Positions 4,588 to 31,726 of a DNA stretch of 37,057 nucleotides are shown here, piece by piece. Position numbers and translations under genes: made by a program. Numbering within the stretch: the first letter of the stretch is position 1; the number at the start of each line of letters is the position of its first letter. The stretch spans positions 1-37,057 of IMG/VR virus record IMGVR_UViG_2648501920_000014; one strand, given 5' to 3'. A model generated the notes under the pieces. The model made no database searches, had not been told where the DNA came from, and saw only the letters and a program-made list of their open reading frames with translations. Origin of the DNA: a virus. Its lineage: Duplodnaviria > Heunggongvirae > Uroviricota > Caudoviricetes.

Positions 4588-4602
4588 TTACCTTTCGGGT
4601 AA
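4588..4602. promoter_or_regulatory. Operator-like inverted repeat TTACC-TTTCG-GGTAA
   Basis: 15-bp dyad with A/T flanks; between tail fibre start (4483) and LexA box; one of at least 14 copies. Confidence 0.4.
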
Positions 4603-4641
4603 TTTGCAAAACGTGCTGGATAGCAAACAAATTATTTGATA

Positions 4642-4657
4642 CTGTATAAATATACAG
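4642..4657. promoter_or_regulatory. LexA (SOS) box CTGTATAAATATACAG
   Basis: Perfect CTGT-N8-ACAG with AT-only spacer, centre of an 18-bp near-palindrome; 21 nt upstream of ATG 4679. Confidence 0.6.
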
Positions 4658-4678
4658 TTATTGCATGGAGAAGATAAG

Positions 4679-4936
4679 ATGCAGCAGTATCACTATCCAC
4701 TGGAAGACGGATTTACCGAAAGGATTCACACGCCGGGAGGCGTCAGGTCACTGGTGGAGGGATCGCACTTGATGAAATTACTCCGGGATCTCGATAAGGA
4801 TGGATTTAATGTCGATGGCCCACTTGCCGAACTGACTGCACTAATTAACTACGTCACCAGCTCACAGATGTCTATGCGGGATCTGCAAACACATCTCGAC
4901 TATTGTGCCGAACAATTACGAAAACAAACCAGATAA
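4679..4936 (+). CDS. Small protein (85 aa), SOS-box-fronted; paralogue of the C-terminal domain of the adjacent Bro-N protein; candidate antirepressor
   Basis: ATG at 4679 with GGAG SD (track ORF begins at TTG 4661); stop TAA 4934-4936; by-eye alignment to Bro-N residues ~165-228. Confidence 0.55.
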   Translation: MQQYHYPLEDGFTERIHTPGGVRSLVEGSHLMKLLRDLDKDGFNVDGPLAELTALINYVTSSQMSMRDLQTHLDYCAEQLRKQTR

Positions 4937-4939
4937 GGT

Positions 4940-4968
4940 TTGCAATTACCAAATGGAGTGCTTATATT
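4940..4968 (+). promoter_or_regulatory. Sigma70-like promoter TTGCAA-17-TATATT
   Basis: -35 TTGCAA 4940-4945, 17-bp spacer, -10 TATATT 4963-4968; operator repeat overlaps the -10 end. Confidence 0.4.
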
Positions 4969-4982
4969 TACCTTTGCGGTAA
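4968..4982. promoter_or_regulatory. Operator-like inverted repeat TTACC-TTTGC-GGTAA
   Basis: 15-bp dyad overlapping the -10/+1 region of the promoter at 4940-4968. Confidence 0.4.
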
Positions 4983-5072
4983 ATTTACATCGCACTCCTC
5001 TTGTGCCATAGTAATCGGGCACTGGCAAAATCCAGTGCCGGGATTGGCGTCCCGGGTTACTAAGTGGCGCAT

Positions 5073-5096
5073 ACCACGCCAGACGTGGTTTTTTTA
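5073..5096 (+). terminator. Rho-independent terminator (ACCACG-CCAGA-CGTGGT + T-run)
   Basis: 6-bp stem, 5-nt loop, followed by 6-7 T; ends an ORF-free transcript of about 120 nt that starts near 4975. Confidence 0.5.
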
Positions 5097-5251
5097 TGCG
5101 TTAAGCACAGCTATATCCGAATTATGGTGGGCTGGGCAGGGGTCCGAAAGGACGCCGGTACCACTTAGGCCGGTACGCCAACCTTGTCCAGTTCACCACC
5201 AGTAATTGGCGTTGCGGTGGTGATTAAAATCACTAAGTGGAGATAACCACC

Positions 5252-5962
5252 ATGGCTAATGCTCAAACTGCCATCTTCAAATTTGAATCTGTTAACCCTA
5301 TCCGTTCCATCATTATCGATGGCCAACCATGGTTTGTAGCCCAAGACGTTTGTAGTGCGCTGCGTATCCAAAACGTCACCCAAGCACTTGAAAAACTGGA
5401 TGATGATGAAAGGTCTATGTTCAACATAGGGCATGAACATCGTGCAATTTTTGACAGCCGAGTAAAAGAGATCAACATCATCTCCGAGTCAGGCCTCTAC
5501 ACACTGATCCTCCGCTGCCGCGACGCAGTGACACCAGGCACTATCCCCTACCGCTTTCGTAAATGGGTTACAGGTGAGGTTCTTCCTCAGATCCGCCGCA
5601 CCGGAAGTTACATTAAAAACTCGCTCCCGCAGGAAGAACGCATAAAGATAGTTGCCGACCAGGTAGCCAACGCCACAGCATCAGCAGTGATGCAGGCAAT
5701 GAAGATAGAGAACAAAACCTACAGTGCCCCACTGAAGCCCGGCTACCGCAGCCTGATTCATTCTCCGTCTGGTGTTCTCGGCCTGACGGAGAACTCACTG
5801 CTGATGAATCTGCTGAACCAGTTACAGGAAGACGGGCACGACGTATCGGGCGCGGCGGCGGAGCTGACCACCATGTTCTGCTACATTGTTGGTGTGAGCA
5901 AATGCCTGCGTGATATCCAGACCCACGCGGAGTACATCAACGACAAGGCTGGGTTCTTCTGA
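5252..5962 (+). CDS. Bro-N domain protein (antirepressor-like) with C-terminal domain paralogous to the 4679-4936 product
   Basis: ATG at 5252 with GGAGA SD (track ORF begins at GTG 5237); N-terminal ~115 aa match the Bro-N pattern (WFVAQDVCSALRI, GLYTLIL, FRKWVTGEVLPQIRRTGSY). Confidence 0.7.
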   Translation: MANAQTAIFKFESVNPIRSIIIDGQPWFVAQDVCSALRIQNVTQALEKLDDDERSMFNIGHEHRAIFDSRVKEINIISESGLYTLILRCRDAVTPGTIPYRFRKWVTGEVLPQIRRTGSYIKNSLPQEERIKIVADQVANATASAVMQAMKIENKTYSAPLKPGYRSLIHSPSGVLGLTENSLLMNLLNQLQEDGHDVSGAAAELTTMFCYIVGVSKCLRDIQTHAEYINDKAGFF

Positions 5963-6034
5963 CGGGCGGCGGCACAGGGATGTGCCTTTAAATAATTCTG
6001 TACAGATTGCAGACTGTGGGTGAATAGCGTACTA

Positions 6035-6049
6035 TTACCTTAAAGGTAA
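6035..6049. promoter_or_regulatory. Operator-like inverted repeat TTACC-TTAAA-GGTAA
   Basis: Immediately upstream of GGAGG SD and ATG 6062; overlaps the -10 of a TTGCAG-17-TACTAT promoter (6007-6035). Confidence 0.4.
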
Positions 6050-6061
6050 AGGAGGCGCGAT

Positions 6062-6229
6062 ATGACAGCGTTGAAAAATCGTACTCAGCACAATGAACAA
6101 GCCAAGCAATGCTGGGATGTCATTGGAAAAGTTATGCTTGGCCGCGCAAGCAAAGAGCGCGACAAGGATATGGTTTACCAGACAGGAACATCTTTCAGCG
6201 ACTTCAAGGCGGCATTTCGCTCCAAATAG
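6062..6229 (+). CDS. Small protein (55 aa), unknown function; first gene of an AT-rich two-gene cassette
   Basis: ATG at 6062, GGAGG SD at 6051-6055, stop TAG 6227-6229; below the 60-aa track cutoff, read by hand. Confidence 0.4.
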   Translation: MTALKNRTQHNEQAKQCWDVIGKVMLGRASKERDKDMVYQTGTSFSDFKAAFRSK

Positions 6230-23157: not shown

Positions 23158-23172
23158 TTACCTTTCAGGTAA
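23158..23172. promoter_or_regulatory. Operator-like inverted repeat TTACC-TTTCA-GGTAA
   Basis: 15-bp dyad about 90 nt upstream of the 23067 start; a TTGACA hexamer lies at 23136-23141. Confidence 0.4.
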
Positions 23173-23494: not shown

Positions 23495-23571
23495 GTGGCA
23501 TTAGCTCAGTCGGACAGAGCAACCGCCTTCTAAGCGGTTGGTCGCAGGTTCGAATCCTGCATGCCACGCCA
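23495..23571 (+). tRNA. tRNA-Arg (anticodon TCT, reads AGA)
   Basis: Cloverleaf read by hand: acceptor GTGGCAT/ATGCCAC, D-stem GCTC/GAGC, anticodon stem ACCGC/GCGGT with loop CTTCTAA, T-arm GCAGG-TTCGAAT-CCTGC, discriminator G, encoded CCA. Confidence 0.85.
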
Positions 23572-30756: not shown

Positions 30757-30987
30757 TCATGAGTAGAAGAAGTATGCCAGTTCTGCTTTTGAGCGCAGCC
30801 ATTGTCTTGTTTTACAGGCTTTAAAAAGCCCATTCATCAATACTTTACCTGGCATTTTGCGCTTACCTGTTAAGTGAGTCTGGATATAGTGACTCGTCGT
30901 TCCGGCTTCCTGTGCGAAGGCTTCACGCTCATCCGGAGTAAGTGCAAGCCAGTGCTTTTTGAAATCGAAATGTCCGTTATCGCTCAT
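30757..30987 (-). CDS. Cro-like / CII-like HTH regulator (76 aa)
   Basis: ATG at 30987; HTH-like LTPDEREAFAQEAGTTSHYIQTHLTGKR; divergent from the repressor across the operator cluster. Confidence 0.5.
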   Translation of the reverse strand: MSDNGHFDFKKHWLALTPDEREAFAQEAGTTSHYIQTHLTGKRKMPGKVLMNGLFKACKTRQWLRSKAELAYFFYS

Positions 30988-31023
30988 AGCTATTGCCTGA
31001 TATTTATTTCAGATAATAAATAT

Positions 31024-31086
31024 TCACCCATAAGGTAACAAAAATCAAGGATAGTTACCTATGAGGTGCATTTACCTGTTGGGTAA
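31024..31086. promoter_or_regulatory. Operator cluster (OR-like): three inverted repeats between the cro-like and repressor genes
   Basis: TCACC-CATAA-GGTAA (31024-31038), TTACC-TATGA-GGTGC (31055-31069), TTACC-TGTTG-GGTAA (31072-31086); last two abut. Confidence 0.5.
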
Positions 31087-31141
31087 TATTGCTTTAAATT
31101 GAATCATCTACTGATTCATATATGAGGCGATTTTCCAGAAA

Positions 31142-31726
31142 ATGAAAAGTATCCAGGACGTCCGCAGGCAAAATCTCAACGACTTGATCGACCGTGAATT
31201 CAATGGTGTTCAGACGCGGATGGCAGAAAAACTTGGAACTCAGGCAAATCTGGTAAACCGCTGGGCTCTTGGCAAGAAGGTTATCGGCGACCAGGTTGCG
31301 CGAAAAATTGAAGCTGCCGCCAATAAACCACGTAACTGGCTTGATATCGATCGCTCGCTTTCTCAGGAAGGTTTTCAGCCTGTCGGCCCAAGCGACATTG
31401 GTCAGCTGGCGGCTCACAACCTGGAACGCTGGATGAGCGAAAGCCGCGACCTTTCAACACAGGGAAAACTTCACCGCGCATCCGGCGTCGCCCAGGTGAC
31501 AATCAGCCGCCTGTTAAACAATGAGGTCAGCGTTTCCATTTCCACCCTGGAGAATGTTGCATCCGCATTCGGGCGTCACGGCTATGAATTACTGATTCAC
31601 CCGCACGACCCTGCGACCATCAACTATGACCGCTCGCGCTACGCATTGTTACCCGAAACCGAGAAAGCAAAGATCGAAAGTTACATTGAATTTGTCATCA
31701 ACCAGAACGAAAAAAACAAACAATAA
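31142..31726 (+). CDS. Phage repressor with two HTH domains and no S24 autocleavage domain
   Basis: ATG at 31142; two HTH-like segments (LGTQANLVNRWALGKKVIGDQVARKIEAAANKPRNWLD and ASGVAQVTISRLLNNEVSVSISTLENVASAFG); no Ala-Gly cleavage site or Ser/Lys dyad seen; stop TAA 31724-31726. Confidence 0.65.
   Translation: MKSIQDVRRQNLNDLIDREFNGVQTRMAEKLGTQANLVNRWALGKKVIGDQVARKIEAAANKPRNWLDIDRSLSQEGFQPVGPSDIGQLAAHNLERWMSESRDLSTQGKLHRASGVAQVTISRLLNNEVSVSISTLENVASAFGRHGYELLIHPHDPATINYDRSRYALLPETEKAKIESYIEFVINQNEKNKQ

Follow-up and report, generated by a model that had tools for sequence, protein, structure and literature searches.

A predicted IsrK-type small RNA and C4 antisense RNA upstream of the antirepressor gene in an epsilon15/phiV10-like podovirus

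Genes and RNA families at the locus

The window (the whole stretch of 37,057 nt that was analysed) is that of an epsilon15/phiV10-like E. coli podovirus (Uetakevirus), and its best match was HEMP4 (98%). The locus lies between two genes of the + strand. Upstream is a small SOS-box gene of 85 aa (4679-4936), taken from the ORF list and preceded on the + strand by TACTGTATAAATATACAGTT (4640-4659), which carries the established consensus CTGT-N8-ACAG at 4642-4657 and which we take to be a putative LexA box. Downstream is ant (5252-5962; ATG at 5252), the Bro-N antirepressor gene and the regulated output, whose product matched Pfam Bro-N (E = 1e-19) and phrog_130, 'anti-repressor Ant' (E = 1e-55). 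By BLASTP the 85-aa product was 43% identical over 74 aa to residues 155-228 of Ant (E = 2e-16), and phrog_450 ('unknown function') matched both proteins. Judged from sequence, the 85-aa protein is paralogous to the Ant C-terminal domain, so that two antirepressor-type outputs would stand adjacent, one SOS-gated and one C4/IsrK-gated. In the Uetakevirus ZX5, the gene at the ant position encodes a Bro-N anti-repressor (ORF4) whose overexpression lowers lysogeny and which shares only 39% identity with the Ants of phiV10 and phiv142-3 (PMC9782041).

The whole window was searched with Rfam at gathering thresholds, and three matches were returned: a tRNA, isrK and C4 antisense RNA, the last two in tandem and on the + strand only. 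The isrK match (RF01394; 5019-5095) scored 67.7 bits against a gathering threshold of 50 and covered model positions 1-77 of 77 (E = 1.5e-12). Because this full-length match lies above gathering, the ORF-free unit between the two genes was assigned to the IsrK-type RNAs, here a c4-a1b1 leader with an intrinsic terminator. The c4-a1b1 family itself (RF03163; 5006-5058) scored 44.1 bits, below its gathering threshold of 46.7, and the overlapping isrK model scored higher; P1 scored 51 bits on c4-a1b1 and only 35 bits on isrK. The C4 match on the + strand (RF01695; 5120-5203; 66 bits against a gathering threshold of 45, E = 7.9e-11) began 24 nt after the isrK end, a spacer of 18-26 nt across relatives, and its MFE fold (-43.6 kcal/mol) reproduced the long closing stem and two internal hairpins.

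The c4-a1b1 match came from a permissive Rfam scan, in which the sole match to other RNA families was a chance-level snoRNA (E = 9.5). On the minus strand of the region there were short ORFs only, with no Rfam match and nothing conserved. Rfam returned no isrJ match at gathering score in the window and no match to the P4-type RNA family at the locus. Salmonella phage SW-37 has an isrJ match (locus L013, 1717-1791; 101.7 bits) on the downstream side of its antirepressor gene, the arrangement known from Gifsy-1.

The locus was compared across 17 loci, namely the window and 16 others, which came from phages of Escherichia, Klebsiella, Enterobacter, Hafnia, Yersinia and Salmonella and from P1. An isrK (or c4-a1b1) match followed in tandem by C4 was present in 16/16 comparison loci, P1 among them. 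The genomic context of isrK (its own promoter, then a C4-like RNA, then an antirepressor gene) was likewise found at the locus, and on this evidence the ORF-free stretch is read as a known kind of phage small RNA, equivalent to IsrK and to the c4 a1/b1 leader of P1. The first-pass annotation of this DNA, made by a model from the sequence, had proposed either a small regulatory RNA or a leader/attenuator and had named a covariance-model search as a check; the full-length isrK match, with C4 beside it, bears out the proposal, and Gifsy-1 IsrK has been found experimentally to be both. The unit had, however, been ended at 5096, whereas the predicted functional unit runs through C4 (5120-5203) to the ant ribosome-binding site (5239-5242). 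C4, the central regulator, was absent from that annotation, as were the two pairs of target boxes and the proximal promoter (4984-5012) described below.

RNA structure and complementary boxes

Three stem-loops of the IsrK-type RNA were read from the sequence of the + strand: hairpin 1, GGCACTGG / CAAAAT / CCAGTGCC (5018-5039); hairpin 2, CGGGA / TTGGCG / TCCCG (5039-5054); and the terminator, ACCACG-CCAGA-CGTGGT followed by T7 (5073-5095; stem of 5-6 bp). All of these had been noted in the first pass, as an 8-bp hairpin, a second short hairpin and a terminator at 5073-5096, and the RNA fold of 4975-5096 suggested there was stable (-51.9 kcal/mol, z = -4.86; 0/200 shuffles equally stable). In a 16-sequence alignment, 97.9% of cells of the two 5' hairpins were paired. 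Compensatory changes were found in 6/7 pairs of hairpin 1, and 7 pairs over both hairpins changed on both sides; 0/500 shuffles reached the observed level of covariation, and no slid register came close. A terminator hairpin with a stem of 5-8 bp (-7 to -11 kcal/mol) and U6-7 was present in 16/17 loci, P1 having a terminator-like hairpin with U5. Such weak, short stems leave room for partial read-through. The loop of hairpin 1, GCAAAAUC (5026-5031), was nearly invariant across all phages, with a stem that co-varies freely, which suggests a conserved protein or RNA partner.

Two short boxes of the IsrK-type RNA recur, on the same strand, in front of ant, and both are complementary to exposed parts of C4. 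Box a1, TTGGCGT (5044-5050), occupies the loop and 3' side of hairpin 2, and b1, CTAAGTGG (5060-5067), lies in the single-stranded linker. Within C4, b' (CCACTTAG; 5161-5168) forms part of a 9-nt hairpin loop and is complementary to b1 and b2, and a' (ACGCCAA; 5175-5181) sits in a single-stranded joint and is complementary to a1 and a2. Box a2, TTGGCGT (5206-5212), begins 2 nt past the C4 3' end, the same position as the annotated a2 of P1, and b2, CTAAGTGG (5233-5240), overlaps the ant Shine-Dalgarno sequence GGAG (5239-5242). In P1, a1 is annotated at the place equivalent to a1 here, and b2 lies ~10 nt before the regulated start codon. The two pairs of boxes explain the purpose of the second hairpin and the linker.

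The boxes were followed through the 17 loci. At least 8 forms of b' were found (CCACUUAG, CCUUUUAG, CCUUUGUAG, CCGUUUAG, CAUGAUGA, CCGAUAAC, CCUUUUUC and, in P1, CACUAAC), and the a box occurred in 4 forms (TTGGCGT, TTGGTCT, TTGAGAC and, in P1, TTGACAG), with a1, a' and a2 co-varying. Among the b' forms, CCACUUAG is the window type and CCUUUUAG that of phiV10. Both target copies, 1 and 2, changed together with a'/b' in all 17 loci, the sole departures being G-U wobbles. Co-folding (cofold and duplexfold) of full-length C4 with IsrK or with the ant leader gave little or no net gain, or an unrealistic full unfolding, and so the case for pairing rests on co-variation. If the RNAs interact, they would do so through kissing contacts between loops. 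The three-way co-variation between C4, IsrK and the ribosome-binding site is the strongest evidence that the predicted pairing is functional.

Two further pairings were observed near these elements. In the first, GGTGGTGA (5216-5223), which lies in the a2-b2 interval, has its complement in TCACCACC (5193-5200), the 3' strand of the stem that closes C4. The segment GGTGGTGA was kept, as such or in a form 1 nt shorter, in 16/17 loci; the scan did not return it in P1, where a changed complementary pair, CCUGCCACC/GGUAGCAGG, is visible by eye. This pairing may be an alternative in competition with the folding of C4, or it may belong to a leader hairpin closing over the start of ant.

The other pairing is a clamp helix on the + strand, UGGCGCAU / AUGCGUUA (5065-5072 with 5096-5103), which encloses the terminator hairpin and its U-run. 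It can form in read-through RNA only and lies outside the Rfam isrK and C4 models. It was assessed with per-locus folds and shuffles. The helix was present in the MFE folds of 15/17 loci and was better than shuffled controls in 13/15; at least 5 compensatory sequence types were found across phages, P1 among them, and cross-type duplexes were weak. Alignment of the terminator flank with MAFFT and RNAalifold did not recover it, the 5' strand being out of register. The parser that sets terminators automatically went wrong on P1 in each of the two runs, and on Hafnia in the first one. The clamp helix may mark the read-through isoform for processing, or mask b1.

Promoters and operator

Two promoter-like sites precede the RNA on the + strand. 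The distal one, TTGCAA-17-TATATT (4940-4968; -35 at 4940-4945, 17-nt spacer, -10 at 4963-4968), had been named in the first pass and is indeed present, with 9/12 consensus matches; the scan returned 3 such sites against 2.9 expected in shuffles, which is chance frequency. The site was kept at -80/-79 to -51 from the isrK +1 in 9/10 other relatives that carry the operator, also in those with a different gene upstream, with a shift of 3 nt in phiV10. It is therefore the conserved position, and not the frequency of the match, that backs the promoters. The distal site is plausibly a second, upstream promoter, placed like P2c4 (P51a) of P1.

The proximal site, TTTACA-17-(TG)nCATAGT (4984-5012), has a predicted start near 5018-5019 and is analogous to P1c4 (P51b) of P1; the distal promoter lies 44 nt upstream of it. 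A sigma-70-like -10 hexamer was found exactly 7 nt before Rfam isrK position 1 in 16/17 loci, including P1, where the proximal site is the annotated P1c4 promoter of the GenBank record. From this fixed distance, the main transcript probably starts near 5019 and is an RNA of 77 nt (5019-5095). Past the terminator, the first AUG is at +106 in the window and +107 in Gifsy-1, which agrees with a start near 5019. The RNA of ~100-120 nt expected in the first pass from the distal promoter would give way to this shorter product of the better-conserved proximal one.

Between the two promoters is an inverted repeat with the core TTACC-N5-GGTAA, TTACCtttgcGGTAA (4968-4982), extended to ATTTACC-N5-GGTAAAT (4966-4984) and given without strand. 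It falls on the +1 region of the distal promoter and abuts the -35 of the proximal one. The first pass had placed the dyad over the distal -10; the dyad is there, but it begins at the -10 end and lies mostly downstream. Thirteen core sites (≤1 mismatch) were counted in the window against 0.52 expected, an excess of ~25-fold that was reached in 0/100 shuffles; they start at 4588, 4968, 6035, 23158, 26225, 26243, 28679, 28741, 30687, 31024, 31072, 31784 and 31846. Two of these copies, with a weaker third seen by eye at ~31047, lie in a divergent region (30985-31141) that has a small leftward ORF on one side and, on the other, a 194-aa HTH_3 protein (31142-31726), likely a CI-type repressor. In relatives the arms of the dyad were kept and the spacer varied. 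Since the dyad is enriched, clustered in the cI/cro-like region and conserved in its arms, TTACC-N5-GGTAA is predicted from sequence to be a genuine repressor operator, which justifies the earlier label of an operator-gated promoter. The dispersed layout is reminiscent of P1 C1.

Two of the other copies are of interest for their surroundings. The one at 23158-23172 lies ~320 nt upstream of the phage tRNA-Arg (anticodon TCT; 23495-23571). Downstream of ant, a third promoter-plus-operator unit (6007-6050) consists of TTGCAG-17-TACTAT with TTACCttaaaGGTAA at 6035-6049 and stands directly before a 55-aa ORF (6062-6229; phrog_8607, unknown function).

Related systems, mechanism and meaning

The P1 record gives the order operator Oc4, promoters P2c4 and P1c4, a1, b1, c4, a2, b2, icd and ant, with spacing similar to that found here, and its a1/b1 sites are annotated as 'putative' only. 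In P1 and P7, the pairing of C4 with a2/b2 prevents the antirepressor operon from being translated, as the P1 annotation and a review also state, and differences in box sequence between phages are the basis of P1/P7 heteroimmunity; the immI operon of P1/P7 was reportedly the subject of work by Citron and Schuster in 1990. The locus resembles P1 immI in the order and spacing of its elements, in its tandem promoters with a repressor operator (binding being predicted), in the exposure of a' and b' in joint and loop, and in the placing of b2 at the regulated ribosome-binding site. It differs in that no icd-like ORF is present and ant starts 49 nt after C4, so that ant would be regulated directly; b2 here lies directly on the ant Shine-Dalgarno sequence, just as b2 of P1 lies on the icd ribosome-binding site. 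Processing of C4 by RNase P and Rho-dependent polarity are further marks of the P1-type module. The operator is the symmetric TTACC-N5-GGTAA, predicted to serve a CI-like HTH protein, where that of P1 for C1 is asymmetric; the P1 counterpart of the IsrK terminator is weaker, and the phage is an integrating podovirus, unlike P1, a plasmid prophage.

In Gifsy-1 the isrK promoter drives the antirepressor gene, and IsrK is both a terminated, trans-acting sRNA and, on terminator read-through, the 5' leader of the antirepressor mRNA (PMC4825925). The long read-through RNA is translationally silent, and IsrK supplied in trans raises anrP translation ~100-fold or more; Hfq binding and this trans-activation of antirepressor translation have been shown for Gifsy-1 only (PMC4825925). 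There, orf45 overlaps C4 and is translated, its translation being needed for coupling to anrP, and a co-expressed STnc1160 region failed to relieve IsrK toxicity (PMC4825925), a result that does not fit a simple sponge model. STnc1160, a processed RNA downstream of Gifsy-1 IsrK, lies at the place of C4 and corresponds to it. When the published Gifsy-1 mutations were transferred by alignment, the activating changes G28A and G31A mapped onto a1 and the compensating changes C162U and C159U onto a', and the published 'helix b-I' would accordingly include the a1-a' pairing.

The locus shares with Gifsy-1 isrK-orf45(STnc1160)-anrP the two 5' hairpins, the linker, the intrinsic terminator and the same promoter offset, as well as a leaky terminator leading into a C4-like RNA and then an antirepressor gene, with a1, the central part of IsrK, being complementary to the RNA that follows. 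The frame equivalent to orf45 (AUG 5124) ends here after 14 codons, with its TAG inside b'; the Gifsy-1 mechanism therefore cannot be transferred unchanged, and translational coupling is unlikely. Unlike in Gifsy-1, ant has its own Shine-Dalgarno sequence overlapped by b2, there is no isrJ match at gathering score, a phage repressor operator stands at the promoter, and a LexA-box paralogue lies upstream.

The CI RNA of phage P4 is likewise a processed antisense RNA with target copies (seqA/seqC) on both sides, and seqA has been called a structural homologue of IsrK by the IsrK authors (PMC4825925). P4 CI acts differently, by premature transcription termination of replication genes rather than by occlusion of an antirepressor ribosome-binding site. 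Phage N15 has immA (CA RNA, icd, antA/antB) together with an SOS-controlled AntC. N15 thus has, as this phage appears to, both an antirepressor operon gated by an antisense RNA and, apart from it, a small antirepressor under LexA control; unlike in N15, the two genes are adjacent here, and the small protein is a predicted paralogue of the larger one's C-terminal domain.

Taken together, 4940-5252 is best read, with a probability of about 0.85, as the control region of a P1-immI-type antirepressor operon in which the ORF-free unit is the IsrK-type first element. One of the dispersed operator copies lies between the two tandem sigma-70-like promoters. RNA made from the proximal promoter would start at ~5019, fold into two hairpins and end at the short terminator, giving a 77-nt RNA that displays a1 in the loop of hairpin 2 and b1 in the linker. 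Read-through RNA would carry C4, whose exposed a'/b' are complementary to a1/b1 and to the identical a2/b2. By analogy with P1/P7 c4 and Gifsy-1 IsrK, C4 processed from the read-through RNA would pair with a2/b2 and block Ant translation, giving a stable lysogen and immunity against superinfecting relatives with the same boxes. Since it carries the same boxes as the mRNA target, terminated IsrK would compete for C4, whether as C4 itself or as that part of the long RNA; with IsrK in excess, the ribosome-binding site would be freed, Ant made and the repressor inactivated. The IsrK:C4 ratio would be set by the repressor operator and the leaky terminator. Where transcription starts in this phage, how efficiently it terminates, how C4 is processed and whether IsrK acts in trans are all matters of prediction.

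Co-variation of a1/b1 with a'/b' and a2/b2 would be needless if the region worked purely in cis, with hairpins and terminator setting transcription into ant and the terminated RNA an inert by-product. Such an arrangement is improbable: a terminator does lie between the promoters and ant, with a short stem that suggests partial read-through, and the P1 boxes are annotated only as putative, but the Gifsy-1 homologue acts in trans (PMC4825925) and no alternative antiterminator pairing for the terminator stem was found in the folds. Of the attenuator that the first pass had proposed for read-through into the Bro-N gene, the leader role is retained; control would be exerted by RNA-RNA pairing at the ribosome-binding site rather than by a classical hairpin switch. 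That the region encodes a protein, through the ORF at 4903-5205 or a peptide of the 'Ash family' or orf45 type, is very improbable indeed. The frame is open from 4903 to 5205, ORFs are annotated here in GenBank relatives, and Gifsy-1 orf45 is translated; yet the ORF begins, as the first pass had observed, inside the previous gene, at a TTG, with no ATG and no internal Met, and the orf45-equivalent frame is cut short as described above. The covariation is of the RNA base-pair type, the isrK-C4 spacer varies over 18-26 nt and stop positions differ between relatives, although the stop-codon survey carries little weight, since frames tend to stay open in structured RNA rich in G+C. Three candidate frames were tried against Pfam and NCBIfam and rejected: the ORF at 4903-5205, the 'ash family' frame of ZX5 and its equivalent in the window gave no matches.

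Less easily dismissed, if still doubtful, is the view that the terminator is mainly the 3' end of the SOS-gene mRNA, with the hairpins as its 3' UTR, so that SOS induction would deliver a1/b1 as a decoy. The terminator scan found no + strand terminator-like site between 4449 and 5073, a stretch that includes everything from the stop codon (4936) to 5073, and the small gene lies directly upstream in most operator-bearing (phiV10-like) loci. The IsrK/C4 promoter nevertheless keeps its fixed offset beside unrelated upstream genes (TL-2011b, EC.W1-9, Stx phages and P1), which argues for an autonomous IsrK/C4 unit, and the SOS-mRNA reading may be additional to the P1-immI-type reading rather than an alternative to it. 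Both are joined in a wider reading that we advance only tentatively, as less likely than not. IsrK would be a dedicated C4 decoy with co-evolving boxes, and the operator and leaky terminator would make Ant a sharp function of repressor level. The clamp helix, confined to read-through RNA, may take either of the roles suggested for it, and the SOS-gene mRNA would probably end at the IsrK terminator, so that SOS would deliver a mini-antirepressor together with decoy boxes.

Relatives of the 331-bp control region were found in 256 phage records, and the region was present in 457/5,426 complete E. coli genomes; one E. coli strain carries a prophage that is 99.7% identical. No ncRNA was annotated at it among the top E. 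coli genome matches listed. In the records the region is blank or covered by spurious ORFs such as 'ash family protein', and phiV10 marks a 'terminator' only. GenBank protein genes run across IsrK/C4 at 2134-2247 of locus L002, 688-1371 of L010 and 531-1673 of L012. ZX5 (across C4) and Hafnia yong2 are given an 'ash family protein', and Salmonella 118970_sal3 has a 'putative antirepressor' that extends too far; these protein genes over IsrK/C4 are probably mis-annotations. In APSE phages, isrK and c4 are already annotated beside a Bro-N gene.

The families to which the element belongs have been described, and so has their mechanism; the element is already known in kind and introduces no new principle. 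With IsrK and C4 labelled in such genomes, false genes would disappear and the antirepressor switch would be marked. It becomes explicit from the comparison that IsrK of Salmonella and the 'putative a1/b1' leader of P1 are one element, and the placing of the published IsrK mutations in a1 and a' links two literatures; a 2025 review lists IsrK and c4 separately. The clamp helix, the SOS-controlled paralogue of the Ant C-terminus and the correspondence between IsrK and the a1/b1 leader of P1 may be the noteworthy points. For the biology of the group, the a and b boxes are diverse even between Uetakeviruses that are nearly identical, which suggests that the specificity of superinfection immunity is determined by these RNAs.
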